Shown here one piece after another: positions 3,088-46,651 of a DNA stretch of 64,000 nt. Source of the stretch: Massalongia carnosa (Eukaryota); contig OZ287072.1 of assembly GCA_965645245.1 (NCBI GenBank), positions 2,604,001 through 2,668,000 on the forward strand. Direction: 5' to 3'. Made by a program: the position numbers and the translations under genes. Under the pieces are notes generated by a model. It had not been told where the DNA came from. It ran no database searches and saw nothing but the letters and a program-made list of their open reading frames with translations. Positions within the stretch are counted from its first letter, which is position 1, and each line of letters starts with the position of its first letter.

Positions 3088-3172
3088 ACGTCCCAGAACT
3101 TCGCGCAGAAAAACCCCTCGTCGTTGAAAGCAGCGCTAGTCCGGATACGACTTCGCCAATCATCGTTGAAAA

Positions 3173-3473
3173 TGTTAAATGGTGAGGCTACCATCGGTTA
3201 GATGGTTAGGCTACCATCAATATAGGCATCCATCGTGAGTCCCACGGGTGCCTGCCAGGCATCTATAAGAGGTGCCTAACAGGCAGCTATGGAGGTGCCT
3301 AACAGGCAGCTATGGGAGGCCTACAGCATTACTGTTATGTGACTGCTATAAAAGCAGGTAGATAGCCCACATAGATAATTACCTTCAATGACAATCATGC
3401 TACTATACCTCCAAAGTGAATTTTACTATTCATAGAAAACACTAGAGTAGCCCCGAAGCGGTTAGATTTAACA
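3173..3473. mobile_element. 301-bp solo-LTR-like insertion (TG...CA) without visible TSD
   Basis: 8-bp terminal inverted repeat TGTTAAAT...ATTTAACA, internal repeated AGGTGCCTAACAGGCAGCTAT and a TATAAAA box. Removing it rejoins the pol frame (..IVEK|ARPGK..LSICMIG). Confidence 0.7.
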
Positions 3474-4879
3474 GGCCCGGCCTGGTAAATCGCGCGTAAA
3501 TTCGAAAGCAGTCGCGTCCGCCGCTTCTTCGCCTATTTTACCTTCAACCTTACCCGTTCCGTCCCTGCTCGTTCCGTCCCCGCTCGTTCCGTCCCCGCTC
3601 GTTTCGTCGCCGACCAATAAGAGTCTACCATTGAGCATATGTATGATAGGGGCAGCTCCCTTTACGCGTCTAGCGAAGAAGAAGGATTGTGAACTCTTCA
3701 CCGTGAACATGCGAGAAATTGAGCATGGCTTGAATCCTAAGCCGGAAATTAATCCCGCTACAGTGTTACCATCGGAATATCACGAATTTCTTAATGTATT
3801 TTCCAAGAAAGAAGCCGATAAACTTCCCGAGCGACGTAGCTATGATCATAAAATCCCGTTGATGGAGGGAAAGGAACCGACGTATAGCCCGTTATATGGC
3901 ATGAGTCGAGATGAGCTGTTAGTTCTACAGAAGTATCTCACGGAAAACCTGAAGAAATGTTTTCTTCGATCCAGTTCTTCCCTGCTGCGTCCCCGGTGTT
4001 GTTCGTTAGAAAACCAGGCGGAGGCCCACGTATTTGTGTTGATTATAGAGCATTAAATGCGATAACGATCAGGAACAGATACCCCTACCGTTGATCAGAG
4101 AAACCTTGGACCGCTTGAGTAAGGCAGTTGTCTTTACTAAGCTAGATATTATCGCGGCTTTCAACCGTCTCCGTGTAGCACATGGAGTGGAAAACTGCAT
4201 TTCGAACACGCTATGGATTATTTGAGTATATCGTCATGCCATTTGGGCTCTAGGGCTCCATCTTCGTTTCAGGAGTACATCAATGATGTGCTTCGTGAAT
4301 ATTTAGACATCTTCTGCACCGCGTACATCGATGATATATTGATTTATAGCAATTCTATGAAGGAACACAGGAATCATGTGAAAAAAGTTCTAAAAAGACC
4401 ATAAAGAAAGCCGGACTACAACTTGACATCATGAGGATATCACATAATAACCACTGCGTGCACCACCACCGCGCACCTGTCTCCGCACAATGGACTCTCC
4501 AACCGATTCTTCCATAGATGATATGGCTGCACGCGCTACGGTCAAAACTACTGGCGATATCAGGTACGTGATGGCTCGTGATGGCTCCCCAACCAAGACG
4601 CAACTGGCCGCGCTAACGCCTCGCCTTCGGTGGACAGTATCATAACTATCCCAGACGTCGAGGCTGTCTCCGACTCCGAGAAAATCGCAATTCTCAAGAA
4701 AGCAGAGTACGGGCTTGGACAGATTCAGGCAATTCCAAGGAGTCAGGCTAACGCTGCAATATATTCAGACAGCGGCTGATATCAGGTCCTCTCGACGCTT
4801 ATGCTCTACGGTCGAGACTACAGTTCGTTCAGTACCTCATATATCTCCTCCTAATACTGATGCTGTGATAACCTAGGTC

Positions 4880-6017
4880 CATAACACCGCCTTCGGACGA
4901 GGAGGAAGATAATGAAGAGTCTCGCTTGCTCGAAGCCCAGGCGCGTAAAGACCTAGAAAGCGATGACTGTTCTGCCAGCTACTCACCCCACCTCGACATC
5001 CCCGTGCGAAACTCGCCCGAGGAACATCGAACAATAATAGGGTACTGGCAATCATTCTCGTCGACAGGTGATGTGGTACTTTGCGCCGAGAGATCAGACT
5101 GGCGGAATTTCCGCGCGTCCCAGGTGCGAGTCCGGGGCCGCTATCGAAACGAACTATTCAGTACATATGTGGACGAGGTTCGCGAGCGTCGGCGAAGGCA
5201 TGGACTGGGTGGCGACGTTCATCTACTGTTGTACTCGCAGCAGCAGAGTCAGCAAGAGAACTGGGTAGAGTTTCAGAACTATCATCTCAAACGTCATGAG
5301 CGGTTGGAGAAGAAGCGAGATGAGCTGAAGAAAGAATTAGATGACGCTCAGAAGAAAGCTGGTGATACGGACATGATAGGTTCTGAACACACAGCACAGA
5401 ACGAAAAAGTCATTCAGCGACGCCTGGAGTATGTTGAACGAACCCTGCGATGGCACGAGATTATCTTGAGGTGGATTTAACAGCAGCGACTTGCGATGGA
5501 TCTACGGCCTCCGACACCCGTCGAAGAAGACAGTGATGATCAGAATGCCGTACTAAAAGCCGTACGGAGAGTCTCCACTCGTCACCGCCAGTCGAGGCGA
5601 CAAGACATTTCTGCGGTCCTCGGTAAGGTCAGGGTCTTAAAACCTACGCCGAAGAGTCGGAAAATGCGGATTCAGACGTTCAAGGCTTCAAAATCCAAGC
5701 CTATCATCGTGGACTCGAACATCACGACGTCGAGCAGCATTCAACAAGTGCCAAAGCGTCGAGAGACAAAGCCTCGACGTGCCCCAGAGACGTCACTTGG
5801 CCAACTTCGTCCACAGAGAGTGTCCAAGGCAAAACGATTCGCTGATGCCGACACGAAATCACGGCCAGAGACACAACGCCGCAGCGTCAGGCAGACTCCA
5901 GGCCAACTACGGCCTCAGCGCCGGCCGGCCACACAGCGACTGCATCCTGCACCTGGGCCTGTTGAGACCCGAAGTGGACAGATATCAAAGCCGCCAGTAA
6001 GGTGGACCCCCGAATAA
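4880..6017 (+). pseudogene. Hypothetical fungal protein, coiled-coil then basic/low-complexity tail, broken by an in-frame TAA at 5478-5480
   Basis: ORFs 4926-5480 and 5496-6017 share a frame and are separated by a single stop (WI*QQRLAMD). Function unknown; 5' end unresolved. Confidence 0.5.
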
Positions 6018-7431
6018 AAGACAGCATCTACCTCTAACGTCTACGACACTTACGAATGATGACTGGGTGAATGAATGACTCACGCAAAAGAGGCAAGGAG
6101 ACCGGGCCGGGCTACATCCATGGAATGATATCACTGGTGGAACGAAAAGTGGCGGTGGCAAAGACGATCAACCCGTCAATGTCTGCATATTATTGCATAT
6201 TTCGGGCTTGGCGTTTGGTACATCTCAAAAATGCATGAATAAAGCAATTCTTATCTATTGTTTGACTGTGTATCTCTATGCCTATCCATATACGAGCTGA
6301 CAGTGACGATAGCTACCATCAACAAACACTTAGTTACCGGACTCCCTGCTTCAGTCACTTCCGCTAGCATGCCGGCTGTTTGACCCGGGTAGGTGTTACA
6401 ATTAATGCGTGCGCCTCATGAACATGGAGCATAGATTTACCATCGCGTTGTGATTGACACACCGAGGTATATGGATAAGGACTTGCGGGGGGCGGGGAGG
6501 AGAGGTGGTGTGATGTGAGGGAAATTGGACACTTTGTGAAACGATGGCTACTTGAGTATCTGCGTAAGGGAGTACTCCCTATGAACCTCCAAAAACTGAG
6601 GGAAGCTGAAGGAGTACTCGCCGAGGGAGCACTCGCCCAGGGAGGTACTCCCCACAGGTTATCCAAAATTCGAGGAGTACTCCCTGTAGGTAGACCTACA
6701 AATAAGTGAGGGAAGTATCAGCCAGAGGCATCCTGCCTTGAGGAGCGAGATAGAGAAGACTCGCCTCGTGCGGATAAACAATGACTGCCGCTACTAGCTT
6801 CGAGGCGCCGGCAGTGCCAAATTTTCAACCCAGTATGTAGAAGGGTCTATAATTAAGATCCGTCTCTGGTACGCGATGTAGTTTGAACTAGTCACGGCAA
6901 GGAGGAAGCTTAGGGTAGGTGAGAGGTAGGTGGGAAAAGGGATGAGGGCCCGTTTAGACCCAATGATTCAGGTCTCATTTCATGAATTTACTTACTGAAT
7001 TGTTGCTGCCATTGGCTCGATACTTTTCTGTAATTCTGACAGCATCAGTAGAAGGCATGATTGAAAATAAGAGAGGTATCTAGGTAAAAATTGATAGATA
7101 TGTAAGCTTCTAAGATATAAGAGTAGGCTGGAATGAATGAAGATGAGAATATGTGGTCTAACAATCCCTCTCTGCGAATATAAGGACTTTGATGTGGATA
7201 TGATTTCTATGACAGTTCGTCCTTGTTAAATGAACAGTTGACGGCATAATGTTGAAATTACTACGGAGGTGACTGCAGGGCTGAGCTAGAACTAATGGGG
7301 CTAAGCGAGTATTCCAACACTTCAAAAGTCGCTTCGTTGAAGGTTGCACGATGATTCCACCGCGAGATCATAGCCTACAGAGAAAGCAGAGTAGACAATA
7401 TCCTCCAACGGCTATCTCACTCTTCGACAAC

Positions 7432-7494
7432 TCAATCTCAGAGCAAGCAGAATTCATCCGTCAATCTCAGAGCAAGCAGAATTCATCCGTCAAT
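7432..7494. repeat. 29-bp tandem duplication
   Basis: TCAATCTCAGAGCAAGCAGAATTCATCCG occurs twice in tandem. Confidence 0.85.
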
Positions 7495-8879
7495 CAGATA
7501 GATCAATTTCTGACATCGAAGGACATCCTTCGATGCTGTTAGTAGGTTTAGGGTATACAAAGTCTTCCGGATTGATGATCTTGTTTCAAACTGAGGACTT
7601 TATAGATTCTCAAGCGGATATGTGCGTCACTGCTGCTCTATCACTTGAGGCCAGTTTCACCCGAAATTCTGCTCCAATCTGCCTAAGACCGTATGGTTCC
7701 CCGGTTTTCATGTACGTCCTCAACGGAGACATCTGTGGCGTACATGATACTTTGATTCGCTGTGAAGGCAGCTTATGGGATTATGATCCCTATGGGCTCG
7801 GTCTTCTTTACGTCAGCCAATGATTTTAGTCATGAAACATCTACTGACTAGTATAAAGTATGCAGCTCACTATTGCTGGAGTGGTTCTGGACAAGAATGT
7901 ACGCTGACTATGTATTCTGCTCTGTTGAGATTAGGGGCGCAGGATGATGACTTTGTCTGGAGAACGAGATCGGAAGCATATAGAAAGAGGCTTTCTTCGC
8001 CGTATATGCAAAGTCTATTTAAACCTCTCTCTCCTTCAGAAGCACTTCCATCTCTCGCCAGGTTGTTAGATTCTTTAATCTCGTTTCTGCTCCCTTTCAT
8101 CTTAACATGCGTGATTATACCGAGGTCATATATCAATGTAAACACCCTCGTTATTTAATTACAGCCTGGTGTGTTATTTATTAGCAAACATAGAAGAGAT
8201 GTCCTCTAAGAGTGATTGAGAAGTGAGTTAATGTGTGCCTATATTTTCGAGATCAAAACATTACTGACCTTTTTGTGGGCATAGAAAACAAGCCTGAAAT
8301 GAAATGCAGTGGTCCATCTCTCATCTACATCACTGTGAGGAATACTTATAAGATTTAATAATCAAAGACTGTCTGCCATCTAAAAGCCACATATTAAAAT
8401 TCTCTTCTCAAACGCATATCGAGTCTAAGTTAGCTAGTTCGCACGTCTAGAACGCACTTGCGCGAAAGTAGACCTCAAGGCGCTCAGTCCTCCACTTTCA
8501 AATCATAAATTGCAACTTCTCTCTTCATATTATTTGTTTCAGCTTCTATATTGCTGGATTTTTCCCGCCGCCCCACCCGTCCCCGGTCGCTCTTGCGCAC
8601 CACCTCACCACGTCGAGCGTTTCATGCCTCAAGCATCATCACTCAGCTGGTTCTCATGGTCCTTGTCCGACACCAGGTATTTATTTCATCGTGCCCCCCG
8701 ACCTCCAGAATCGGCTGTTCTGCTCAGCTTCCCCTCTGTTCCCGTCGTCTCTGACGACCCTTCTCTTCGTGTCCCTCTACCCTTCATCTTCGCCTTTCCA
8801 ACCCTCTTATTCTCCCACTTTCATTTTCGCCGTCCCTCCTTCACGTCGATCACCTATCGTCCACGCTCATCGACTCTAA

Positions 8880-10962
8880 TTTTCCCTGAACGAGTTTACA
8901 AGGACAGCAGCGAGGATCTGCAGAGCTGGATTAAGAACCTTTGGTATCGGTAAGGAGATGCTACTACTACTATCAATAAGTGGACTGGCGAAATCTGATC
9001 GAGGCTGACAGAAATTGCGAATTCACTGGGAAGAACCCCGTCATGACTCTCAAGGAGATCTCTATCAACATCCTCTACGTCTTCTTCGACTGGCTACTCT
9101 CCATTCGAAAAGATCGGCTGAGTGTGGCTAGTACCCTGCAAACATACTGGAATGTTTTTTACCTAGTGCGAAAGAAAGAGACTGGCTGTCTAGAGATCGA
9201 CTCGCTTATCAAAAGCCAGATGCACGGGGTACGAGAGCCCCATTCTACGCCTCTATTGATTAACCAGTACTAGGTGAGACAACGGCTCGCTCTAAAGCAC
9301 GGGTTAAGGACTGAGAAGAAGAAGAAGAAGCTCATCATGCGGGCCGAGGACGAGTTCGTCGAGATCGTCTTTGATCACGAGCGGCACCGTGTACAACTAG
9401 CCTTGATCATGCAGCTAGCCGGAATCACAGATAACCGTCCTGCTGCCCTCTTGGGTGTGTGCTACAAAGATGTTAAGATCACCTTGCTTCCGGATCTCAA
9501 AGGAGGGGAGCTTCCTCGACGGTTGATTGAAATCGCATTCAAGAATACGAAGGGCTATCTAGACGATAAAGAAACGTCCGTGTTGTCCTTTTGTGCTTTC
9601 TTCGTCGGGATGGACAGTTTCGCTGAACGACTGACAAGTATCATAGAAACGAGTTCAGGATTCCTGACGAGCCTGACGAACTATGCCTGCTGCTTTTTCC
9701 TCATCTGAACCTACTCACTTTGATCTTTATCGATCAGGCTTTCGCCGCTCCCGAATTGACTTCTGCCGAACAGTTATTCCGTCTCCGGATCCCCCCGGGA
9801 CAGAAACAGCTGCCGTTTCCCCTTAAGGAAACGATGCTACACGCTCTCCTCTTCCGCCGCTCCGAATTCACCGTGAACGGGGTTCGAATTTCGGATGACA
9901 AAGCTCTGCCTGACAGTACTCTTCGCTCACGGATGATAACCCTTGGAAGCGTCAATGGCATGAAGCTTCGAGCTTTTCGCTGACCCTTGCACAGGCTTCA
10001 TCAGCGAATCGCAACGGAATCAGATTTTGCAATATCATAACTCCACCGTGTTCTTAAAAAGCTATCTCTCGAGGTATATCACAACTGATACTGGGGCCGC
10101 CTCTTGTGATATGAAGCCGCAAACTGCGTTGATGCGACTCGCCAGTGGAAAGAGTCGTACGATTGATCGACGACGGCCTCGGAATCTCAATGACGCCCAA
10201 AAAGCCTAGGTCGATCGTCACCCAGAGGTGAGACTCCTTCGCCGGAGGCAAAAGAAAATGTTCTAGTTCATCAAAGACAATCATGGACCCATCGCGAGCA
10301 TGAAGGGGACATCAATGTAGAATAAGTACCAAAAGGCGTATCCAGCTCATCGCAACATAAAACGGCGGCAGAGGAGGCTCTTTTAGAAGAGGTCAAACCG
10401 AGGTAAAAGAGGGAGCAGCCGGTGATCGACATTCAACGAAAGCTGAAAGGACTGCCGTCGGTAGAACTAGAGACGGCGAAGGCAGAGGATTACGTCTTCA
10501 AGGGGCGTATTCGGGTCATCGACACCCTCCTCACCTTCGCGACGTCATCCCCAGAGGAAGAGTGCAAACGGCGTGTGGAAGCGATCAATGCTTTGACAGC
10601 CCTTTGTCGCTTGCAGGAAGGCAAGCGTCCACGTCGTTCAAAACTTTCCGCGTCGGTCATCAAGGAACGGCATCTGACACCACCATCTGTCCTCGATCCG
10701 GCCTCTCTTTCAGACTCCATCCCGATTGAACGCAAACCCACTCAATATCTTTTGCCTCGGCTGTGTAGCGCTACCCACTGAGACACGTCTGAAGTCTTTC
10801 CACGGCCGCTACGATCTGAAAAAGCACTTCCATTGTAAACACCTTCGTCATCACCAAGACGGTCATCCGATCGCATGCCCTCATCCAAGGTGTCAAGATG
10901 TTTTGACAAGCACAATGCACTTGCAGAACCATGCGGAGTTGGTTCACAAGACGCCCACTTGA
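8880..10962 (+). pseudogene. Degenerate DUF3435-type tyrosine recombinase (Starship captain-like) with C-terminal Cys/His fingers
   Basis: Fragments RHRVQLALIMQLAGITDNRPAALL (catalytic R box), LLFRRSEF..ISDDKALPDSTL, ..AFR, QYHNSTVFLKSYLSRYITTDT (H/Y region) and CLGC..DLKKHF..H..CPHPRC..HLQNHAELVH. Plausible introns near 8950-9011, 9229-9273 and 9576-9646; several stops and frameshifts. Confidence 0.8.
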
Positions 10963-11271
10963 CTGTCATTCGGCTTTTGCGTGCAGATTGGTTATATAAA
11001 TTCCTTTTGGGGTCACCACCTTACGAGCGGCCATAATAGGTTGCCTCCCCATAGAAAAGCTTCGGTTCGGCATCGAGCTTGCCTAATTCCATACCCTTCT
11101 GCTGTATTCGATGCGTCGAATGGTAAGTCTCATGACCATCTCGGGTTCTTATGGGTTCTTCGCTCCTTGTAGCCTATGACTGCTGCGTCACCATCAGCAT
11201 CAACTCTCGTATCGCTCTAGCTCCCAATTTCGGCTCCTCTACTCCCTCGCAAACATCCCATCTTCAAAATC

Positions 11272-11430
11272 ATGGCTACCGTACCATTTGCAACAGCAAC
11301 CAAATGGGATAGCCTAGGAGTATACGTAAAATGTCCCTTCTATCTAAAGACTCATCATCACGGACCAGATCATCAGCCATGGACAGGTCAGACTTGGGTT
11401 GCTCACTTCGGGGGCAATCGTGGGTATGCT
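11272..11430 (+). pseudogene. Short gene fragment with a decayed CPF(C)xxxHxHG-like metal-binding motif
   Basis: Reads MATVPFATATKWDSLGVYVKCPFYLKTHHHG..VAHFGG; resembles N-termini of some fungal ankyrin-repeat proteins (from memory, unverified). Confidence 0.3.
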
Positions 11431-11666
11431 GACCTTACCTAACAATCACTGTATTCTTACGAAGGATAGCTGCCTCCATCTAACATTCATCTAACATGGC
11501 TGCCTAAATCATACATGTACCGCGTTATAGATGGAGAGCATCTCGGCGCAACACACATGAAGTCAGAGATAATTGTTTTACCCTTGGGGCCACTATCTAG
11601 ACCATTATGTAAAATAGTAGCAATATTAAAAAACGATATTAAACTACTGGAAAACATGATATCTTC

Positions 11667-11769
11667 AGCCAGAAAAAATGCCCAAGGCTTTAAAATGACA
11701 GCGGCTTTTTAGTCCCTATCCCTTTTCAATCATTACTCCCTTTTAATCCCTACTCTCTTTCAATTCCTA
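11667..11769 (+). repeat. About 105-bp direct repeat, copy 1 (partner at 20323-20426)
   Basis: GCCCAAGGCTTT(A/G)AAATGACAG..GCTTTTTAGTCC..TTTTCAATCA.TACTCCCTTT..TCCCTACTCTC aligns colinearly with scattered substitutions. Confidence 0.85.
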
Positions 11770-11914
11770 TATAATCCGATTTGGCACAGCGAGACAAGAT
11801 GCCAAGAAATGTGAAACTTCCCCCGTACGTCTTGCGCCCTTGCGCCCCTTACCTTCAAGTTCCCTCTCAACGGAACGATAGAATTCCAATTCCACCATTG
11901 CCAGCAAGATCCAA

Positions 11915-14900
11915 CTAGCTTTCAGACGGTATGGATTTGATTTCATTTTGACGTTTGAATATGTCATCAGGCCTTGTCCTGCCTAGAATTGTCATACCTG
12001 GCACAGGTAAGCCGCTTGAGCCCCGCAGATACATCTCTTCGGCCTCGTTCATCTTGCCTTGATCTTTATACAAATTTCCTAGATTGTTGACCGTGTGGAG
12101 CGTTGATGTGTGATCAGGACCCCAGGCCTTTTCCTTTCCTGTCAATGCCCGCAGATACATCTCTTCGGCCTCGTTCATCTTGCCTTGATCTTTATACAGA
12201 CTTCCTAGATTGTTGACTGTGTCAAGCGTTGATGTGTGATCAGGACCCCAGGCCTTTTCCTTTCCTGTCAATGCCCGCAGATACATCTCTTCGGCCTCGT
12301 TCATCTTGCCTTGATCTGCATACAAAAGCCCTAGATTGTTGACTGTGTTGAGCGTTGATGTGTGATCAGGACCCCAGGCCTTTTCCTTTCCTGTCAATGC
12401 CCGCAGATACATCTCTTCGGCCTCGTTCATCTTGCCTTGATCTGCATACAGACTTCCTAGATTGTTGACTGTGTCAAGCGTTGATGTGTGATCAGGACCC
12501 CAGGCCTTTTCCTTTCCTGTCAATGCCCGCAGATACATCTCTTCGGCCTCGTTCATCTTGCCTTGATCTGCATACAAAAGCCCTAGATTGTTGACTGTGT
12601 TGAGCGTTGATGTGTGATCAGGACCCCAGGCCTTTTCGTATCCTGTCAATGCCCGCAGATACATCTCTTCGGCCTCGTTCATCTTGCCTTGATCTTTATA
12701 CAGACTTCCTAGATTGTTGACTGTGTCAAGCGTTGATGTGTGATCAGGACCCCAGGCCTTTTCGTATCCTGCCAATGCCCGCAGATACATCTCTTCGGCC
12801 TCGTTCATCTTGCCTTGATCTTTATACAAAAGCCCTAGATTGTTGACTGTGTGGAGCGTTGATGTGTGATCAGGACCCCAGGCCTTTTCGTATCCTGTCA
12901 ATGCCCGCAGATACATCTCTTCGGCCTCGTTCATCTTGCCTTGATTTTTATACAAATTTCCTAGATTGCCGACCGCGGCGAGCGTTGATGTGTGATCAGG
13001 ACCCCAGGCCTTTTCGTATCCTGTCAATGCCCGCAGATACATCTCTTCGGCCTCGTTCATCTTGCCTTGATCTGCATACAAAAGCCCTAGATTGTTGACT
13101 GTGTTGAGCGTTGATGTGTGATCAGGACCCCAGGCCTTTTCCTTTCCTGTCAATGCCCGCAGATACATCTCTTCGGCCTCGTTCATCTTGCCTTGATCTT
13201 TATACAGACTTCCTAGATTGTTGACTGTGTCAAGCGTTGATGTGTGATCAGGACCCCAGGCCTTTTCCTTTCCTGTCAATGCCCGCAGATACATCTCTTC
13301 GGCCTCGTTCATCTTGCCTTGATCTTTATACAAAAGCCCTAGATTGTTGACTGTGTCAAGCGTTGATGTGTGATCAGGACCCCAGGCCTTTTCCTTTCCT
13401 GTCAATGCCCGCAGATACATCTCTTCGGCCTCGTTCATCTTGCCTTGATCTGCATACAGACTTCCTAGATTGTTGACTGTGTTGAGCGTTGATGTGTGAT
13501 CAGGACCCCAGGCCTTTTCGTATCCTGTCAATGCCCGCAGATACATCTCTTCGGCCTCGTTCATCTTGCCTTGATCTGCATACAGACTTCCTAGATTGTT
13601 GACTGTGTCGAGCGTTGATGTGTGATCAGGACCCCAGGCCTTTTCCTTTCCTGTCAATGCCCGCTGATACATCTCTTCGGCCTCGTTCATCTTGCCTTGA
13701 TCTTTATACAAATTTCCTAGATTGTTGACTGTGTGGAGCGTTGATGTGTGATCAGGACCCCAGGCCTTTTCGTATCCTGTCAATGCCCGCAGATACATCT
13801 CTTCGGCCTCGTTCATCTTGCCTTGATCTTTATACAGACTTCCTAGATTGTTGACTGTGTCAAGCGTTGATGTGTGATCAGGACCCCAGGCCTTTTCGTA
13901 TCCTGTCAATGCCCGCAGATACATCTCTTCGGCCTCGTTCATCTTGCCTTGATCTTTATACAAAAGCCCTAGATTGTTGACTGTGTGGAGCGTTGATGTG
14001 TGATCAGGACCCCAGGCCTTTTCGTACCCTGTCAATGCCCGCAGATACATCTCTTCGGCCTCGTTCATCTTGCCTTGATTTTTATACAAATTTCCTAGAT
14101 TGCCGACCGCGGCGAGCGTTGATGTGTGATCAGGACCCCAGGCCTTTTCGTATCCTGTCAATGCCCGCAGATACATCTCTTCGGCCTCGTTCATCTTGCC
14201 TTGATCTGCATACAAAAGCCCTAGATTGTTGACTGTGTTGAGCGTTGATGTGTGATCAGGACCCCAGGCCTTTTCGTATCCTGTCAATGCCCGCAGATAC
14301 ATCTCTTCGGCCTCGTTCATCTTGCCTTGATCTTTATACAGACTTCCTAGATTGTTGACTGTGTCAAGCGTTGATGTGTGATCAGGACCCCAGGCCTTTT
14401 CGTATCCTGTCAATGCCCGCAGATACATCTCTTCGGCCTCGTTCATCTTGCCTTGATCTTTATACAAAAGCCCTAGATTGTTGACTGTGTTGAGCGTTGA
14501 TGTGTGATCAGGACCCCAGGCCTTTTCCTTTCCTGTCAATGCCCGCAGATACATCTCTTCGGCCTCGTTCATCTTGCCTTGATTTTTATACAAATTTCCT
14601 AGATTGCCGACCGCGGCGAGCGTTGATGTGTGATCAGGACCCCAGGCCTTTTCGTATCCTGTCAATGCCCGCAGATACATCTCTTCGGCCTCGTTCATCT
14701 TGCCTTGATCTGCATACAGACTTCCTAGATTGTTGACTGTGTTGAGCGTTGATGTGTGATCAGGACCCCAGGCCTTTTCGTATCCTGTCAATGCCCGCAG
14801 ATACATCTCTTCGGCCTCGTTCATCTTGCCTTGATCTGCATACAGACTTCCTAGATTGTTGACTGTGTTGAGCGTTGATGTGTGATCAGGACCCCAGGCC

Positions 14901-17900
14901 TTTTCGTATCCTGTCAATGCCCGCAGATACATCTCTTCGGCCTCGTTCATCTTGCCTTGATCTGCATACAGACTTCCTAGATTGTTGACTGTGTGGAGCG
15001 TTGATGTGTGATCAGGACCCCAGGCCTTTTCCTTTCCTGTCAATGCCCGCAGATACATCTCTTCGGCCTCGTTCATCTTGCCTTGATCTTTATACAGACT
15101 TCCTAGATTGTTGACTGTGTCAAGCGTTGATGTGTGATCAGGACCCCAGGCCTTTTCGTATCCTGCCAATGCCCGCAGATACATCTCTTCGGCCTCGTTC
15201 ATCTTGCCTTGATCTTTATACAAAAGCCCTAGATTGTTGACTGTGTGGAGCGTTGATGTGTGATCAGGACCCCAGGCCTTTTCGTATCCTGTCAATGCCC
15301 GCAGATACATCTCTTCGGCCTCGTTCATCTTGCCTTGATCTGCATACAGACTTCCTAGATTGTTGACTGTGTTGAGCGTTGATGTGTGATCAGGACCCCA
15401 GGCCTTTTCGTATCCTGTCAATGCCCGCAGATACATCTCTTCGGCCTCGTTCATCTTGCCTTGATCTTTATACAAATTTCCTAGATTGTTGACTGTGTGG
15501 AGCGTTGATGTGTGATCAGGACCCCAGGCCTTTTCCTTTCCTGTCAATGCCCGCAGATACATCTCTTCGGCCTCGTTCATCTTGCCTTGATCTTTATACA
15601 GACTTCCTAGATTGTTGACTGTGTCAAGCGTTGATGTGTGATCAGGACCCCAGGCCTTTTCGTATCCTGTCAATGCCCGCAGATACATCTCTTCGGCCTC
15701 GTTCATCTTGCCTTGATCTTTATACAGACTTCCTAGATTGTTGACTGTGTCAAGCGTTGATGTGTGATCAGGACCCCAGGCCTTTTCCTTTCCTGTCAAT
15801 GCCCGCAGATACATCTCTTCGGCCTCGTTCATCTTGCCTTGATCTTTATACAGACTTCCTAGATTGTTGACTGTGTCAAGCGTTGATGTGTGATCAGGAC
15901 CCCAGGCCTTTTCGTATCCTGCCAATGCCCGCAGATACATCTCTTCGGCCTCGTTCATCTTGCCTTGATCTTTATACAAAAGCCCTAGATTGTTGACTGT
16001 GTGGAGCGTTGATGTGTGATCAGGACCCCAGGCCTTTTCGTATCCTGTCAATGCCCGCAGATACATCTCTTCGGCCTCGTTCATCTTGCCTTGATCTGCA
16101 TACAGACTTCCTAGATTGTTGACTGTGTTGAGCGTTGATGTGTGATCAGGACCCCAGGCCTTTTCGTATCCTGTCAATGCCCGCAGATACATCTCTTCGG
16201 CCTCGTTCATCTTGCCTTGATCTTTATACAAATTTCCTAGATTGTTGACTGTGTGGAGCGTTGATGTGTGATCAGGACCCCAGGCCTTTTCCTTTCCTGT
16301 CAATGCCCGCAGATACATCTCTTCGGCCTCGTTCATCTTGCCTTGATCTTTATACAGACTTCCTAGATTGTTGACTGTGTCAAGCGTTGATGTGTGATCA
16401 GGACCCCAGGCCTTTTCGTATCCTGTCAATGCCCGCAGATACATCTCTTCGGCCTCGTTCATCTTGCCTTGATCTTTATACAGACTTCCTAGATTGTTGA
16501 CTGTGTCAAGCGTTGATGTGTGATCAGGACCCCAGGCCTTTTCCTTTCCTGTCAATGCCCGCAGATACATCTCTTCGGCCTCGTTCATCTTGCCTTGATC
16601 TGCATACAAAAGCCCTAGATTGTTGACTGTGTTGAGCGTTGATGTGTGATCAGGACCCCAGGCCTTTTCCTTTCCTGTCAATGCCCGCAGATACATCTCT
16701 TCGGCCTCGTTCATCTTGCCTTGATTTTTATACAAATTTCCTAGATTGCCGACCGCGGCGAGCGTTGATGTGTGATCAGGACCCCAGGCCTTTTCGTATC
16801 CTGTCAATGCCCGCAGATACATCTCTTCGGCCTCGTTCATCTTGCCTTGATCTGCATACAAAAGCCCTAGATTGTTGACTGTGTTGAGCGTTGATGTGTG
16901 ATCAGGACCCCAGGCCTTTTCCTTTCCTGTCAATGCCCGCAGATACATCTCTTCGGCCTCTTTCAGCTTGCCTTGTTCGTTTGAAAAATAGCCAATAGCA
17001 TGATACGAAGAATATAATACCTGTTCCCCTCTCATATTTCTTTCGAGGTTTTGAGGTTTTTTTCCAATCCAGAAGTGAACATAACTACAATGACCAGCCA
17101 GTCGTTTTCGATGCAGCCAGTTTGCTGAACTGCCAGTGGATTGACATGCGGAACCGATTACAGAAACTGCTAAAGAAGCTATCTCGTCGTTAGAGGTTAG
17201 ATTCATGTGAAAACACCAGTCATGTATAATTGGATGAATCGCATAAGATGAGATCTCATATCGTGTTTCTATCAAGGAGTAATCCAGCAGTATTTGAATC
17301 TTCTGTGTAAAATCAAATTCCGTCTTCATGCTACATAAAAACCAGATAGGTAATGTCTCTTTTGGGATAATGCTCTCGTCATCGTCAAGTACAGGTGCGA
17401 ATAAAGAATACCATAAATCTGAATGATCGAGATATGCAAACAGATTAAGCAATTTTGCAGCGCTCGCGTCATTGCGTTGCACATATTCATAGGAAATGGT
17501 GTACGTAGATAAAATGCTACGAGGATAATCTTTTAATCGGGTCGTTTTGTTGTTGTGAAGCTTCTCCCAAGTCTCTTCATAGTATCGAATATAGTCGTTC
17601 ACACTTGTAGTCGTTCCGTGGATATAGGAGCCTGCATGAGCAAGTGCTAGTGGGAGACCACCCACTTTCTCGACAATCCTATCAAGGCCTATAAAATGCT
17701 TAGTAAATTGGATTAAGACTGTGGCTTGAATTTCATTACCTTCAACTGATCGTCCTATCCTGCATCGTAATACTTCTGCTCCTTGTAGATCGCTCATCCT
17801 TCCAAGTTGCCGGTCCTGCCCGTGTTGTCGAAGCTGTCGTAATCGGCTTGTGATTAAAATAGAGCCATGATCGGCTTCCGGGAAAAAATCTTCCATATCA

Positions 17901-19463
17901 TATGATTGAGGATCATCTACCTCAGGGGAATTATCACGATCGACATTATCGAAAATGAGAAGCCATTGATTGTTTTCATGTTGACTGAACCAAATAAGAA
18001 TATTACGAATGATTTCATCTAGCTCTTCAGGGGATGTTTTAGAGAATTTTCTACATGAATCCGGAATCTGATCTGGGGGTAATTGCCGAGCAATCTGTGC
18101 AAGACTTTGACGTACACTTTCCTTACTATCGCCGTTTAGCCAAAAAATTGAACTGAAAATCTTCTGTGATCTTTGAGCGAACTCGATTGCTAGCTGAGTC
18201 TTGCCGGAGCCGCCCAGTCCGTGCAAAACGAACACCTTCCGGCGAGTCTCACGAGTTGGCTTGGGAAAAAGGGTATTCTTAAGGTCATTCATTTCCTGAT
18301 CACGAGCTATAAATTTTGGTACACGGGGTAAGCCTTTCAAACTAAACGGCACTTTATATGAACCACTGTCTATTCAAGGATTTAGTAACTCAAGAATTAT
18401 CAAGCAAACATTGACGCACATTCTCGTGTTGAAAGATTATTTCCACAAAGCTTCATTTGTTTCATCACGCTTTCCAAAGCCACATAGCGGGTTGTGGCGG
18501 CCATGATCTTGTTCTTCTGTGCTGCATCTTCGAGTCCAATACTCTCAAGCCCATGAGAAACATTGAAACGAAAGTAGCGATTTCCATCGTCGAGATCGGA
18601 ATGCGCTCGATGAAAAGACTCCGCTGTTTTTTCTGTCTCTGTTGCAATGTCTTTCAACGTTTTTGCAATCTCGAAGAGGCTTGAGCCATAAGTATCCAAG
18701 GATGGAACGCCGGTACCGATAGATATCAGGCATTTGATGTTTCCCTCAAGCGCTTCATCTGACCACACACTTTTGGCCTCGTTCCAAAGATGTGCGACAG
18801 GATTGTTAGCCCCCACAGCCCCATCGACAAACTCTTCTTCAAACTGACCAATTTTAACTGGATCAAAGAAGGATGATGCGGCAGATGTGGCTCGAGCTGC
18901 CTCCCAAATTCGTGTCTTATGGTACATATCTGATGATCCTCGAGAAGGATAGGATGTGAAAAGGACTGTGTCGGCAGTCTCTTTGCTCAGAGCGCATACA
19001 AATCTAGCTTTCATTAGTATCACTAGAATTATACGTGTAAATGCAACTTCCGAAGCACTAACACCTTGCATTGCTGATTCTCTGATCCTTTGAGGAGAGC
19101 ATTTTCCCCTGCCTTCTCCTTCCGCTTTACGATTTCTCGAATCGACCGTTCCAGCTCTTCTGTGTCGAATCTCCCCTGCACGTGTCCGTTTATTGTGACA
19201 CGATGCCGCTTTTTTTTAAACACTTGATCGAACAATGCGACATAGGCATCAATACATTCATCGATATTCATCTCAAGACGACCTAGCATGATAGCAATCA
19301 ATCCACCGGTACTTGTCCCTCCGATCAAGTCGAAATACTCGCATGGCTTCGGCGGCGCATTCGGATTGATGATCTCCATCAGTCGCTTGAGGATTGCGAG
19401 TGACGATAGCCCTCGCACTCCACCGCCATCAAGAGATAATAGGCATAAATCTTTATCTGGCAT
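11915..19463 (-). CDS. Fungal NLR: patatin-like phospholipase + NB-ARC + TPR array (PLP-1-like architecture), about 2462 aa, 4 exons
   Basis: Exons 19463-19063, 19003-18420, 18369-17740, 17688-11915 (7389 nt, in frame). Introns GTTAGT..CTAG (59 nt), GTGCGT..TAG (50 nt), GTAATG..TAG (51 nt), each with an ACTAA branch site. Patatin motifs DGGGVRG, GTSTG, DGA; P-loop GLGGSGKT, Walker B LLIFDNVD, GGLPLAL; 42-aa TPR repeats. Confidence 0.95.
12023..16936 (-). repeat. 39 tandem 126-bp (42-aa) TPR-coding units with very high internal identity
   Basis: Span 4914 bp = 39 x 126; consensus ALTG[K/Y]EKAWGPDHTSTL[N/D/H]TVNNLG[L/S/N]LY[A/K]DQGKMNEAEEMYLR. Confidence 0.97.
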
Positions 19464-20174: not shown

Positions 20175-20600
20175 CTTTTATTCCCCCAAGGCTTTTGTCC
20201 CCTCAGGGACTTTATTTCCCCAGGGCTTTTATTCTCCCAGGGCTTTCATTCCCTCGGGGAACGAAAAGAGTAGGGAAACGAAAGCCCTGGGAGAATAAAA
20301 GCTCTGGGGAAATAAAATCCCTAGCCAAGAAAAACGCCCAAGGCTTTGAAATGACAGGGGCTTTTTAGTCCATATTCCTTTTCAATCACTACTCCCTTTC
20401 AGTCCCTACTCTCGTCTAATTCCTACCCACTTCCAGTCCCTACTCCCTTTCAGTCACTACTCTCTTCCAGTTCCTATGCTTTTTGAATTCCTACTCCCTT
20501 CCAGTCTCTACTCTCTTTCAGTCTTCACTCTCTTTCAACGTCTATAATCTTTCAGTCCCTATGCTTTTTAAAGCCCTTCTAGTCCTCACCCCCTTTAGCG
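20175..20600. repeat. Fold-back array of about 19-bp units, then direct-repeat copy 2 (20323-20426) and a degenerate about 18-bp tandem array
   Basis: CTTTTATTCCCCCAAGGGC-like units (20175-20255) are mirrored by GCCCTGGGAGAATAAAAG units (20260-20320); TTTCAGTCCCTACTC(T/C)C-like units recur to about 20600. Confidence 0.75.
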
Positions 20601-21493: not shown

Positions 21494-23635
21494 CCTCAAC
21501 GTGGAAATGAGGTTTGGATATTCCATTAGCAGAATAAAATAGAAAGGATTCAGAATACATGCATTGGAAGGACGAGATGCTTATGGACAGTCCCCCCCGA
21601 CCGTCCCCCCTGTGTAAATCTTTGCTAGTAAACAGCCATTTTACTACTCATCCAGGGTGCTTACAAGCTAGTAATGCAGCTGTCAACAGCACATTAAACT
21701 CTTTTCGGTTTAAATCGTATCACGTGTTTATTGCTACTAATAATTACCCTACTCGGTCTGATAAAGCATACCCTCACCCTCACCTTTGCCCTCCCCTAAA
21801 TCTTCCCTTCCACTTATGCTATACCTCATATTATATATTTTATTACTCCTCATCGCGATGGAGTCCGATCCCACTTCTTTGGATGCACGGAAGCAACATG
21901 CCATTGCCCTTCTACCCCCATCTCGCCTCCTCCCTCCGCAAGAGAATGAGTTAGTTTCGTCTTGAAAGAAGCCGAAGACTCGTCTTCAAGACTATGCCTT
22001 CATCCAAGGCTTCGCGTTGATCACAGAACTCACTATTGCGGCTAATAATGGGTACAAGGTACAATAGGTTTAGGAGAAAACTTAGTCATGAAGAGAATCG
22101 AAAACGCGCCTATCATCTCCGACGACGACGAGGTTCAGTATATAAACACTCAGCCCATTCTCGGTCGTTCTATGAGTCCTATGCTTCCTTCGGATGACGA
22201 TAATGATGTTATGCTTTCATCAGAAGCCTCGTCGGATTCGCTCGAAGATATTGACGATGTGCTTGCCAAGCATAACTAGTCAAAAAGCACTATTTCAGGC
22301 AGCGCCGCCTTCATCTCTTTATAGTCTTAGTCAAAACGTGCGCGTCAGTCAAATTCTTCCTACTTCCTCCGCAACAACGCGAAGGTCTCGAGATGTGATG
22401 AAGAAATCAAAGGCTCAGTTGGAGTTGGAATCTCAGGAAAGAGTCGAGAAATCAGTCAAACAGATTAGGACTCAAGCGAGAAAGGAAACGACGATGAGAA
22501 AGGTGGCTAAAACCATGAAGCCTAGAAAAGATGATGTATCGCAATTGATTGACGAGTTTTTGGGATTGAAGTCATCGCAATAGGTAGATTTGTAGATGTT
22601 GAATACATTTAGTTAGTAACAGTAACGTTATTAATACGTAGTCACGTACTATAACTGCTAGCTTGTACAAATCGGGTCTAGGAAGTCAGCAAACACTTCG
22701 CTTAATTTCCCCTCATCTAAATTCCCCCCTTACTTCACCCCCCCCTTTCTACATCAATTTTCATCTGATCAACGAAATGCCTTCTAAACCCAAGACGGCC
22801 AGACGTGAACACTCGTCTGAAACCATTGCTATCGTTGTAGCCCTTCCTGAAGTCCACTTATCCTATGCTGAAATAGCCCGTCAAGTTCGGCTGGCCCGTT
22901 CCACCGTAGTCACCATAGTTCATAGAGCTAAGAGACAAGCCGACGCCTCTTCCGTTCCCAAAAAACGTACTGGTCGGCCAACCAAGCTAAATGTCCGTGC
23001 CAGACGGGCATTGATTCGCCATGTTGAGAAAAATCCACACGATAATTTGCTGGCCCTGACTACCCCTTCCAAATCGGGTCAAAAGCTCTCTCGCGTCACC
23101 GTACGAAAATATCTGAAGCTCGGTGGCTATTTCCGTTTCAGGGCTAGAAAAAAGCCGTTTCTATCAGCACGTCACAAAGCAATCAGGCTAAAATGGGGCA
23201 AGGAGCATAAGCATTGGACGGTAGAAGATTGGGGCCGAGTTATATGGACAGATGAAGCTACGTTTGAAACTGGTTTAGACACTCGCTCGTGCTACGTCAC
23301 GAGACGAAAAGGCACGGCCATGGAGTCTAGATATCTGAAGCCTACATTCAAAAGCGGACGAAGCACTGTGGGCATCTGGGCTAGCATACGATTGGGTGAA
23401 AAAGGCCCTATGCTCGTTTTGAATAAGGGGAGACGAATGAATTCAGATATCTACATTGACGAGGTGCTACGGCCTTTAGGGCTCTCGTTTTATGAAGCAT
23501 GCTTGACTAGGCGAGGTTTGACGATCTGGATGGATGACGGAGCCAGCTATCATACTTCGAAAAAGGTGATTGATTGGGGAAGACGAAACGGGCTTTTACG
23601 CATGGCTTGGCCACCTCAGTCACCCGATTTGAATC

Positions 23636-24083
23636 TGTTGCGAATTTCCTAAGTTGCCGCATTTTCTTGAATTCCCGCATAACTATTTTTAGCTAAGCTC
23701 AATTGGGTAATCGCAAAATATTTAACGAGTTCGATTTCTAATGTGGCGGGATGAGATTTCAAATCACTCTTTTACGGCATGATAAACCGCGAGAAGATGA
23801 ATAAGCTATTATAGCTATTTTGACATACATGGCGACAATGGCCTCATCAGATTATCAATCCTTTCGGCTTCGTACATTCAAAAGTTGCGAAGTTCGGTCA
23901 GCAAAGCCGAATAGGGGTAATATTCTTTAGGTATAATAAGGCGTTGATTTCTCATGTATTTTATCTATTCAGTCGTTATCAGGTAGCTATTCGGTATAAT
24001 AAATATTCAGCTATTCAGCACTTATTCTTGTACCTTTATCGTCCCAGACAACCTGCCTCCCATTATCCAGGCGCGTTTCAACA
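23636..24083. mobile_element. 448-bp solo-LTR-like insert in the DLNPIE motif of Tc1 copy A
   Basis: TGTTG...CAACA ends, 5-bp TSD GAATC (23631-35, 24084-88); same insert in copy B. Confidence 0.85.
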
Positions 24084-24276
24084 GAATCCCATTGAGAATC
24101 TCTGGCGTATTATCAAAATACGGGTCAGTGCCCGTCGTCACCAAATCCATACAATTGAGGCCATGGAGCAGGCTATTCGGGAGGAATGGGAGCTGTTGAC
24201 TGAGGAGGACTTCAGACGGTGCATTGAGAGCATGCCTGAGCGTATTTGCTTTCTTATTAAGGCTAAAGGGGGTTCT

Positions 24277-27200
24277 TGTGGGTTTACCCCAACTCGTGGC
24301 ACCAGACGTATGACTACGTCAGTGCTTGAGTTGGATGGTAAAGTTGTTCTATTAGCTAGTAGCGAGCGTGGGCTATATAGGCGTGTGCCCCTTTTCGGGG
24401 TCACGTGGCTGACTAGGCGTCCCGTGCCTAACAGTGACGAAGGCCTTAATAGCCTCTAGTCGTGCCCACAGCCCGTTCTATCTACTAGTGCTACTAACAC
24501 TGGAACCACTTAGAAAAACGAAATAAACCCCCTCTATGCCTCGATGCCGGGTTGCATCTATGCCTGCTGTCCCCCTACGCCCGGCTTTGCTTGCCTGTGT
24601 GAGGCCTCATATAGCGTCTCACTCAACCCAACTCGCAACTGACATAGCGCGGCCTCAGGTTCATTGAACATCATCACCCTGCCATTTTATCGCCGCCCTA
24701 CAGCCTGATGCTCGTTCTACCCACTCGGTCGTATCTAGGTTGATGCGATTAGTATCAATCACCGTTTTGAGGGCCGAGGATGCCTTTGTCTTGGTCATGG
24801 AGTCGGCGGGGTTGTTGTGGCCATGAATCCATTTCACCTCGGTCACCTCACGTCTCTCGTATGACTGACGGAGACTCATGACATCAATCATTAAGCGTTT
24901 CTCTTGGGTCGTCCCGAGTTTTACTAAGCAGTCATATAGCGATTTTGAATCCGTGCAGAGAATCAGTGGAATGTCGGTTCCGAGAAGTTTGCTAAGGGTT
25001 GCCTTTATGACGGCCCCGATATCGAACCCATGTGCCATGCCATATAGCTCGGCGGCCAAGACACTCCGCGTCACCCTTTTACACTTAATTGATGACCAAT
25101 GAATGACGTTGGCTTTGTCAGTCGAGTCAGCAAGGCATATGACATAACCGATTTGTGATGAGAGGTCTCGGTTGTTGGCAAAGGATGAATCGGTGAAAAC
25201 GACCAACTGAAGGCTGTTTCGATCGAGTTTGACGTATTTCAGCCCTCGGGATTGATTGTCTATTTGCCACTTAAGTCGCTTGTTTAGGGCATTGATATCA
25301 TCTGAGGAGAACTTTGTTGACTGAGCGGCATAAGATAGATCGAAAGAGGCCTCGGGCTGACAGATGGAAGCTGTGTATGCACCTCTAGCTCGTTGGGCCA
25401 CATATTGCTCTATCGAAGACAACTTTTCTCGAACGATGCCTCGCGAGCTAGTTGTCGAGGCGTCATGATTCTTAACCAGCGAGATGCCTCCAACACGAGT
25501 TTCCTGGCTCAACATGATGTCTCTGCTCGGGGCGAGTCGGATCATGGTGCCATTGAACTTGATTGGGGTTTCGAGGATGAGATGAGTGCGCTCTTTAGTC
25601 ATGATCTTAGCCTTCTTGATAGCATCTTCTTCTTCGGCCGAAAAGGTGTCGCTTGCTAGCATAAGGGTGTCGTCAGTTTGTAGGCCAACGATGCCAAAAG
25701 GCTCGGATTTGTAGAGTAGGCATGGATCGTAGGTTGACTCGGTCATGCCGAGTTTTCTAGTATGATGGGCATGATACGTGGCGAACCAATGATTGCCTGC
25801 TTCCGGGACGCCATAGAGAGGTTTTATGACTTTTAGGATGCAGTTGGATGGAGCTCCCATCATCGCGGTGAGTTCATGAGGCGGGCGGATGTAAAAGTCA
25901 CGATTCAACTCGGAATTTGATTGAACGTATGCCCGAGTGACGTCGCGAAGGTATAGCTTTGTTGACTCATTTTGAAATGTTGCTGTGAGGCAGATGATAA
26001 GACGTTGACTGACTCGTTGAATTGTCGGTGACTGTGTCAGAACGAGGTCTTTATTGAGGTCATTGTAGGCCTGTACGACCAGACGTGATTTCTCGAAAGC
26101 CTTATCGGTGCCAGGATTCTTTATTTCGTCAACAAACCTCGAGTTGAAAACGCGTGCGTCATCTGGAACGTCTTCAAAATTTACGAGTTTGAATACACCT
26201 TTTTCTAGAAGTCCGGCGACTTCCTTTTGCCTCGATGAGGTGAATTGGGGTAATTTCGAGATGTCGTCATCATTATCTTCAGGAGTATCGATGACGAAGC
26301 AGATGTTGGAAGGCGTAGTGAAATTGACATGTTCGGGATGCTTTCTGGGTCTTCCACGGCCACGTTTGACTGGTGCTGATGGTGCTGATGAAGGTGAGGC
26401 AGTCGGGGCAATGATTCCCGAGACGAGGGGATTCGTAGGAGGGGTGTCTCTTGCATCGATCGAGGGAACATGTCCCGAGGTGCGAGGGTTAATAGATGAG
26501 GCATCTCCTGTACCATCATCTATACGTCCTGCACCAACGTCGGCGTCTCCTGCGCTTTCGTCATCTTTTTCATCTTTATTTGTATCCTTCATGCCATCAG
26601 CAGCAAGGTCGTAGTACGGTTTCAACGAGGTGGAACGGAATTTGGTGGGTCTGCTCGACAGCTCGATGATAGCCGACTCGCCTTGTAGGCTGAGAAGTTT
26701 GTATGGTCCCTTCCACGTCCCTGATCGACCTGCATTGCCTTCTCGGAATACTAGCACCGGCGAATTGATGGGCAAGTCGTGAATCAAGGTGGTGGACGGG
26801 CCGTTTCGAGTGTTCAATGCATCATTAACCTGACGAGATGCATGCAGCTTGCGTACCTCCTCCATAGCCTTTCTCATGGCTATCGTGCGTTGGGTGATTG
26901 TAGGCGAGGGAGCATCCATTTCAGTCATTCTCGGGTAGGCACCGAACACAAGCAACGTCGGAACTAGACCATTCGGTCCTACCGAGTCGTTGAGTGCCTT
27001 GAATGCCATTTGTAGGGCCAACTCGGGCTCGATTCCGGGAATTTCGGCAGTTATGATGCTATATGCTCGACGAAGTGGTCCATGATAGCGTTCAACTAGA
27101 CCGATGGAGTGATGCGCTTCGACGGGGACGTTTTTGACAATGATTCCCATGTTTGCAGCATATTGTCGGAATTCCCTGGCCATGAACTGTTTGCCTGCAT

Positions 27201-46636: not shown

Positions 46637-46651
46637 ATACTATGTATCTAA

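Follow-up and report, generated by a model that had tools for sequence, protein, structure and literature searches.

A dead captain-type recombinase gene beside an intact NLR gene in the lichen fungus Massalongia carnosa: a possible derelict Starship-type element

How does an intact immune-type receptor gene come to lie directly behind the remains of a recombinase gene of the kind that leads Starships, the giant transposons of fungi? The question is raised by a stretch of 64,000 nucleotides from the genome of the lichen fungus Massalongia carnosa (assembly GCA_965645245.1, contig OZ287072.1, positions 2,604,001 to 2,668,000), called the window in this text. The window is transposon-rich fungal DNA with a GC content of 42-54%, and in it a pseudogene of a DUF3435 tyrosine recombinase, or captain, here called the relic, faces a gene for a nucleotide-binding oligomerization domain (NOD)-like receptor (NLR) that is open from start to stop.

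An original prediction, made from the sequence of the window, had taken this pair for a probable derelict Starship carrying an immune receptor, and we lean, with some reserve, toward the same answer: a derelict element of the Starship type whose captain died and whose neighboring NLR survived. In such a scenario, a DUF3435 recombinase with a C-terminal C2H2 finger would once have stood close to the 5' end of an element with cargo, reading inward, with the NLR as the first gene behind it and convergent to it; the captain would then have been killed by deletions, four stops, and two frameshifts, while the NLR would have stayed intact. This reading is favored because the layout matches the captain-then-NLR order found in a lichen lineage that shows Starship hallmarks elsewhere, and from it we infer two things: the NLR came in as cargo, and the element could once transpose here. 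If the NLR did come as cargo, the locus shows how a working receptor of the immune type can outlast the giant transposon that brought it, and such survival would be one of the ways in which fungi enlarge their NLR repertoires.

The captain relic and its lesions

The relic is identified by four pieces in different reading frames, located between 9274 and 10781 on the plus strand, that match the Pfam family PF11917 (DUF3435) with E values of 1.2e-17, 6e-27, 2.7e-21, and 8.8e-11, and that together cover positions 16-418 of the 418 of the profile. The original prediction had called a decayed tyrosine recombinase on this strand and had named a DUF3435 profile match as the way to check it, and both the match and the decay are found. 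A word-based protein search for relatives returned 189 candidates, reduced to six proteins with E <=0.001, and the best named database relative is P0003, a 658-aa C2H2-domain protein from the lichen fungus Heterodermia speciosa, whose residues 29-658 align in six pieces to window positions 8870-10959 (tblastn). With its introns taken out (Table 1), the relic is open from 8876 to 9969 for about 305 codons, corresponding to the first four exons. Further upstream, a remnant of what was the 5' region of the gene is 71% identical over 83 nt to the corresponding region of L047 and L046, two of the related loci described below (blastn, E 1.6e-7).

Regarding the lesions, the start codon and the first 30 codons of the captain are gone: codons 31-55 have their homologue at 8875-8950, and a gap of about 90 nt lies between 8785 and 8875. 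Further into the gene, a deletion has removed the equivalent of PTGPYTFRRGNGQALDNS, box II of the recombinase. Residues 323-342 of P0003 have no match in the window and the frame shifts there (tblastn), and the contigs of two sequencing runs discussed later, X2 and X4, contain, precisely at 9969/9970, 87 letters that the window lacks; the active-site segment lost from the window copy is thus retained in other copies. Nine of the 30 invariant columns of the six-protein alignment (P326..S340) sit inside the deleted segment, which, by its spacing relative to Y381 and Y416 of HhpA, the residues tested by Urquhart et al. (PMC10104507; for this and the other papers cited, statements refer to the passages available), would hold the Y/H and the second Arg of the catalytic pentad. 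With this putative residue assignment, the pentad R-K-H/Y-R-Y of the relic is not intact, as the segment with the Y-x-x-R box is deleted. In addition, the tblastn alignment places in-frame stops at about 10207, 10264, 10318, and 10404, where the relatives read, in order, GAG/GAA, AAA/AAT, TAC/TAT, and TAT/TAC/TTT, and frameshifts at about 10375 and about 10750. The window copy can no longer produce a recombinase.

The distribution of these six stops and frameshifts is uneven for neutral decay, all of them being in the 3' half of the relic (9970-10962) and none in 8876-9969. Repeat-induced point mutation (RIP) was considered as the cause of the decay and rejected: the TpA/ApT index is 0.63 and the (CpA+TpG)/(ApC+GpT) index is 1.14; the 170 private changes include 35 C>T and 36 G>A, with no preference for CpA/TpG; three of the stop sites require a transversion from every relative codon, and the fourth requires one from three of the four relatives shown. 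The substitution pattern points to ordinary mutation, not to RIP.

The NLR gene and the neighbors of related captains

The NLR gene is convergent to the relic and the two stop codons are 952 bp apart, in agreement with the intact NLR predicted within 1 kb of the recombinase. Its reading frame starts with an ATG at 19463, ends with a stop at 11917-11915, and contains no internal stop along its three exons (19463-19063, 19003-18420, and 18369-11915), which are separated by introns whose splice and branch sites are canonical (19062-19004, GTTAGT..TAG, and 18419-18370, GTGCGT..TAG). Thus, the expectation of a dead captain next to an intact cargo candidate agrees with what is found, lesions in the former and an open 2479-aa product in the latter. 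The patatin domain carries the motifs GGGVRG, GTSTG, and DGA, and the NB-ARC domain the Walker A motif GLGGSGKT plus LLIFDN. The units of the TPR array are 93-98% identical in DNA, with 16 distinct units, and differ in amino acids mostly at unit positions 12, 25, 32, and 35 (plus 10, 26, 28, and 36). An N-terminal effector domain, an NB-ARC NOD, and near-identical repeats with few hypervariable positions make this gene a fungal NLR with highly conserved internal repeats, and its array shows the kind of repeat shuffling that is typical where fungal NLRs are actively diversifying.

The fungal NLRs of the PLP-1 type, reportedly described by Heller et al. in 2018, are said to combine patatin, NB-ARC, and TPR, with PLP-1 working together with a linked sec-9 allele. 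The window NLR has the same three-domain architecture, with lipase and P-loop motifs intact, and an open reading frame (ORF) scan of the window found no SNARE gene beside it. One named protein with patatin and NB-ARC domains, from Pseudocyphellaria aurata, matches with 80% identity across 46% of the query. A direct repeat of 103 bp, whose two copies are 87% identical, occurs on both sides of the NLR, at 11667-11769 in the spacer and at 20323-20425, where it adjoins a 118-bp palindrome (20205-20322); it is probably a dispersed repeat similar to a miniature inverted-repeat transposable element. The two copies were considered as element ends and dismissed in favor of a short dispersed repeat, given the contig pile-up there and the adjoining palindrome.

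To place the relic among its relatives, metagenome contigs were scanned with the alignment of the six homologues; 205 pattern matches were obtained, 91 were confirmed, and 80 were kept, giving 79 loci, which became 60 representatives when loci at least 98.5% identical were merged. Lichen metagenome assemblies are the source of most of them, and many have a full-length open captain gene. They match the window only over 8886-10991, with identities of 77% or less, and therefore belong to other species. The relic falls within this lichen captain lineage: in a DNA tree of 50 rows it is the sister of locus L072, with an SH-aLRT (Shimodaira-Hasegawa-like approximate likelihood ratio test) support of 100, and both sit in a clade of 10 rows (SH-aLRT 100) that also holds L007, L022, L032, L043, L045-47, and L060. 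The captain of L072 (= L073, L075, L076; 10001-11542) is also 5'-truncated, only residues 180-658 being matched, and behind it come a NACHT-Ank gene, in convergent orientation, and an NB-ARC gene; this locus and its 10-kb flanks are 99.7-100% identical in four assemblies, and it looks like a fixed relic.

Several of these relatives behave as Starships do. In four of them (L007, L043, L046, and L047), homology on the left breaks off sharply at a common point, -452/-458 from the ATG of the captain, beyond which the DNA is AT-rich and unrelated. The conserved 5' terminal sequence reads TTATAAATTTTAACGRGGGGACGGC and is followed by a short GCTGCC...GGCAGG hairpin; where located, it precedes the captain ATG by roughly 430-490 nt (L001, L005, L007, L018, L023, L024, L029, L034, L039, L040, L042-L044, L046, L047, L050, L054, and L057), or by about 300 nt in one clade (L037, L038, and L052). 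It is kept between captain clades whose identity is only about 69%, in every clade the DNA to its left is unrelated and mostly AT-rich, and we regard it as a candidate recombination site of the lichen captain lineage. The DNA to its right can be common over long distances: L046 and L047 share it from -452 to the ends of the loci, at least 10 kb, with 98.7-99.6% identity, and L037, L038, and L052, which form a sister clade, are 99.9-100% identical from -300 over 9-12.5 kb and have three different upstream flanks.

Two further features of these loci may be mentioned. Between L046:12651-12700 and L047:12651-12700, a segment of about 30 bp with short inverted repeats at its sides is inverted, just past where the conserved captain module ends (+360), in elements otherwise 98.7% identical. 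In addition, L045 (8866-9873, minus strand) and L052 (4293-6499, minus strand) have a second, inverted DUF3435 copy directly upstream of the captain, i.e., adjacent or nested captains.

The genes that follow these captains were tallied from 407 ORFs of at least 140 aa, taken from the 49 of the 60 representative loci with at least 5 kb, which were scanned against Pfam, with an additional tblastn search using the window NB-ARC. The count, made by hand with loci of the same flank merged and with flanks of at least 3 kb only, considered NOD or repeat-domain genes (NB-ARC, NACHT/NPHP3_N, TPR_10, Ank, WD40). Within 10 kb of the captain, 15 of 40 loci have such a gene on the downstream side and 3 of 34 on the upstream side (Fisher p 0.006); of the 15 downstream genes, 14 are on the strand opposite to the captain (binomial p 0.001). 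The positive loci are scattered over all captain clades and include L072 and L007, the two nearest informative relatives of the relic, both with a convergent NLR. Other immune-type domains found downstream of related captains are SIR2, HeLo, HET, PNP_UDP_1, and DUF676, and DUF3723 occurs downstream of the captain in L058 and upstream of it in L024. Moreover, L034 and L049, from one assembly, are colinear, with captains 92% and NLRs 89-91% identical, and from this equal divergence it follows that captain and NLR were duplicated together.

These data bear directly on the possibility that the relic and the NLR are chance neighbors, brought together only by the accumulation of transposon relics and NLRs in repeat-rich, fast-evolving compartments, so that the pairing has no structural meaning. 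Transposons do lie nested on either side of the pair throughout the window, and no direct link between relic and NLR is visible in the window itself. However, the side and strand biases of the related loci, together with the divergence in step of captain and NLR in L034 and L049, make a chance pairing very unlikely.

Cargo of a giant element or neighbor of a compact repeat

Several observations weigh against a derelict Starship and are gathered here, starting with copy number. Seven public sequencing runs contain part of 6100-11900, the best of them 0.56 of the sampled words, and the contigs of four runs (X1, X2, X4, and X5) were aligned to window positions 1-12020, ending at the TPR array, with their summed depth as a rough copy-number measure only. 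Over 4412-7218, the depth is even and low, about 3000 in X1, 450 in X2, 43 in X4, and 10 down to 1 in X5, and was taken as single-copy. Over 7620-12020, which comprises the relic and both of its non-coding flanks, it rises to 13,600-59,000 in X1, 1135-2750 in X2, 189-591 in X4, and 27-67 in X5; that is, the relic is present, together with at least 1.3 kb of its upstream and 0.9 kb of its downstream DNA, at about 2.5 to 20 times single-copy depth in the four runs (about 3-13 times for 7620-8874). In this region, the contigs diverge from the window by 1-5%, vs 0.4-1.8% in 4412-7218. Unbroken contigs span 7570-8564 and 8426-8918, the latter with small gaps only, and the contig across 8426-8918 suggests that the other copies share the start-codon deletion and the structure upstream of it. 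With this deletion apparently common to the copies, multiplication would have taken place after the captain had lost its start, and the captain's own activity cannot explain it. We read the relic as what seems to be one further-decayed, diverged member of a several-copy repeat family that includes the non-coding flanks. Starships are expected to be low-copy (PMC11162782), and the relic region, as far as the rough measure of depth goes, is not.

Over 1-12020, no joint removing the relic is seen in the contigs of the four runs, which cannot show absence, and the window's own relic letters (9013, 9760, 9860, 10022, 10033, 11106, and others) do not appear in any contig of these runs, but contigs drop rare variants, so this does not amount to a presence/absence polymorphism. 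The stop of the single-copy contigs near 6985-6994 was considered as an element boundary and is read instead as the start of repeated DNA.

The depth and the divergence of the copies favor a different explanation, in which the relic belongs to a solo or compact multi-copy DUF3435 element, or to a dead derivative of one spread by segmental duplication, and lies beside a resident host NLR; their adjacency would then come from an oriented insertion preference 3' of NLRs, or from the duplication of a block with both NLR and relic. We consider this explanation possible but rather doubtful. It is kept alive by the start-codon deletion just described, by the many paralogue pairs of related loci that have in common only about 3.1 kb around the captain (from about -470 to +3..+367), and by the fact that "solo" captains are an acknowledged open category (PMC11162782). 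On the other side, the right limit of this 3.1-kb core has neither a terminal motif nor an AT-rich flank, and no terminal feature marks the right limit of the DNA common to more distant paralogues (+3 to +467). The 14-nt core of the 5' terminal motif is found once per locus in 28 of the 79 loci, always on the plus strand upstream of the captain and never a second time within the flanks, which argues against a compact two-ended element, and so do the close relatives with at least 10 kb of common downstream DNA and unrelated upstream DNA.

As for the NLR, its residence at the site before the captain came is suggested by L034 and L007, whose captains are 69% identical and whose NB-ARC-TPR regions are 87-92% identical, i.e., one NLR lineage beside quite different captains. 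Co-inheritance would account for this pattern no better than insertion beside NLRs or an exchange of cargo would. Further, NB-ARC relatives of the window NLR, 78-96% identical, are found on different megabase-size contigs of public assemblies; the N-terminal part of the NLRs varies between loci (DUF676-NB-ARC-TPR, NACHT-Ank, HET-NACHT-WD40); and no patatin relative of the window NLR was detected in the 79 loci at E 1e-5 with the second patatin piece and the NB-ARC piece as queries. A resident NLR is at odds with L037, L038, and L052, where an ankyrin-repeat gene lies within the common mobile block.

A broader view is that the lichen captain lineage, defined by DUF3435, the C2H2 finger, and the 5' hairpin motif, habitually carries a convergent NLR as its first cargo and that modules are exchanged between distant captains; we put it forward tentatively, as an idea with the odds against it, and a variant reading is that these captains target DNA 3' of NLR genes. 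If the habit were real, these elements would be a main vehicle that spreads and reshuffles NLRs among lichen mycobionts, and the window would hold one stranded product. In any case, the cross-locus pattern of a 5' terminus, downstream convergent NLRs, and near-identical NLRs beside different captains is a hypothesis for lichen fungi that can be tested on whole genomes. The cross-clade 5' motif, the bias toward convergent downstream NLRs, and the near-identical NLRs beside distant captains are absent from the available passages of the papers cited here, and may be in print.

The window itself offers few traces of a giant element. Element ends, direct repeats, terminal inverted repeats (TIRs), or an empty site were not found in the window, and the 5' terminal motif of the relatives, searched in three forms with up to 3 mismatches, gave 0 matches each. 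DUF3723 and ferric reductase (FRE) genes were not found among the stop-to-stop ORFs of at least 150 aa window-wide and of at least 70 aa in the non-transposon parts; the auxiliary genes associated with Starships (DUF3723, FRE, patatin-like phospholipase (PLP), and NLR) are represented in part, by PLP and NLR as one fused gene. The original prediction had also pointed to more than 40 kb without a housekeeping gene behind the NLR. This holds as a description, and fails as a sign of a giant element, since the tract consists of nested transposons whose young insertions give no measure of an old element: with long terminal repeats (LTRs) 99.6-100% identical, most of it was inserted long after the decay of the relic, whose private branch in the DNA tree amounts to 0.13 changes per site.

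What speaks for the derelict Starship-type element is the DUF3435 identity, the geometry, the behavior of the relatives, and the agreement with the published definition of Starship-like regions, to be set against the missing ends, motif, direct repeats, and empty site. The orientation of the relic fits a captain reading into its element, with the NLR 3' of it, and the repeat DNA runs at least 1.3 kb further upstream.

Known systems and the surroundings of the pair

The 2022 definition of a Starship-like region is a DUF3435 gene colocalized with DUF3723, FRE, PLP, and/or NLR genes without target-site duplications (Gluck-Thaler et al. 2022, PMC9156397), and the window agrees with it, having a captain gene beside PLP/NLR and no target-site duplications. 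The same paper reports that cargo can persist after a Starship degrades, in regions called "Derelict"; these have no DUF3435 gene and keep DUF3723, FRE, and OCH1, whereas the window keeps a captain relic and is without detected DUF3723 and FRE. The locus is a further case of a published category, the regions with a captain plus PLP/NLR genes described from 2022 to 2026, including those of lichen fungi.

Starships of lichen fungi were first described in 2026 (PMC13486527; bioRxiv 10.64898/2026.06.16.732702). The Starship-like elements of Peltigera (bioRxiv 10.64898/2026.06.16.732702) resemble the window in belonging to a lichen mycobiont, in their nested transposons, in having a captain-like gene plus one further gene, and in lacking a clean 5' end at the captain; they differ in measuring 29-45 kb and being bounded by insertion/deletion polymorphism between isolates, a boundary that the window does not show, and the available text of this preprint has 0 mentions of NLRs. 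Tangerine, a Starship of Xanthoria parietina, contains a captain, a PLP, an NLR, and a methyltransferase, with more than half of it made of nested transposons; its family forms, at the base of clade 1, a clade of Lecanoromycetes only, and other captains are noted within 100 kb of PLP/NLR genes without defined ends (PMC13486527). The window is likewise in a lichen fungus, with a captain, PLP/NLR, and nested transposons. Yet, captains of the Tangerine family have no N-terminal core-binding domain, while the N-terminal half of the window relic (about 300 codons) is present; the Tangerine NLR is tail-to-tail with a type-11 methyltransferase at 350 bp, while the only methyltransferase of the window is FtsJ-like and 32 kb off; and PLP and NLR are one fused gene in the window. 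The identification of the window with Tangerine was ruled out by gene content, gene order, methyltransferase type, and captain N-terminus.

Cryptons, the compact tyrosine-recombinase elements mentioned in PMC10104507, were also compared. The relic is similar to them in that the recombinase is the sole mobility gene, the repeat is multi-copy, and paralogues have a common core of about 3.1 kb. It differs in its Pfam assignment to the captain family DUF3435 and in that the relatives, rather than having both ends within a few kb, show one conserved terminus and at least 10 kb of common downstream DNA. No relevant paper on captains with a C2H2 finger was found in the literature, as judged by title and abstract.

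The positions of all features are collected in Table 1.

Table 1. Features of the window, with those of the relic and the NLR first and the transposons after them (UTR, untranslated region; MULE, Mutator-like element; LINE, long interspersed nuclear element)
Feature	Position	Strand	Basis or remark
DUF3435 tyrosine-recombinase (Starship captain-type) pseudogene	8875-10962	+	Pfam, tblastn, exon reading, N-terminal comparison
Relic introns	8950-9011, 9229-9273, 9576-9646	+	Ordinary short introns, explain three frame changes
Deletion site, with loss of about 20 codons and of an intron's 5' part	9969/9970	+	tblastn; contig comparison
Cluster of disabling lesions	10207-10406	+	4 stops and the frameshift at about 10375
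C-terminal C2H2 zinc finger of the relic	10747-10959	+	Still readable
Remnant of the captain upstream (promoter/5' UTR) region	8703-8785	+	Matches -172..-90 of relatives
Non-coding DNA upstream of the relic	7620-8874	.	Co-repeated with the relic in related genomes; no recognizable element terminus
Spacer between convergent relic and NLR	10963-11914	.	Belongs to the multi-copy repeat
Intact NLR, patatin-NB-ARC-TPR, 2479 aa	11915-19463	-	Pfam Patatin, NB-ARC, DUF7779; spliced model
TPR array, 39 units of 126 nt (42 aa)	12044-16957	-	Repeat search, unit table
Tc1 element split by Copia	22665-24276 and 30153-30330		Nest 21.6-30.4 kb
Copia inside Tc1	24277-30152		LTRs 99.6% identical
Second Copia	31168-36997		LTRs 100% identical
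Gypsy	37415-43303		LTRs 99.7% identical
TIR element	44237-47430
Tc1, MULE, and LINE copies	From 53.8 kb on
gag fragment, Tc1, and old gypsy fragment, upstream of the relic	0.7-4.4 kb

Transposition in the window is very recent. Besides the LTRs, two 1.79-kb Tc1/mariner copies, the one split at 22665-24276 and 30153-30330 and another at 61469-63253 that is nested in a LINE, are 99.9-100% identical. Upstream of the relic, contigs of X2, X4, and X5 connect 1766 to 3088 and omit a Tc1 copy (1321 nt); either the insertion is polymorphic, or these contigs stem from a different copy of the surrounding element, one that lacks Tc1. Two short segments, 7219-7619 and 3209-3609, have a depth tens of times that of single-copy DNA in all four runs, and at least about 100-fold in some; loose contig ends accumulate at 7273/7276, and both segments are read as short highly repeated elements.

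Apart from the NLR, the only non-transposon ORFs with a Pfam match found downstream of the relic are an FtsJ-like methyltransferase ORF (51406-52002, plus strand) and the C2H2 zinc-finger ORF that adjoins it (50623-51267, minus strand). The FtsJ-like ORF was considered as a housekeeping marker of the far edge of the element and set aside, because it is not a clear core gene and thus sets no boundary; its nearest Atlas clusters are cap 2'-O-methyltransferase-like, with a score of 0.91, and come in part from giant viruses.

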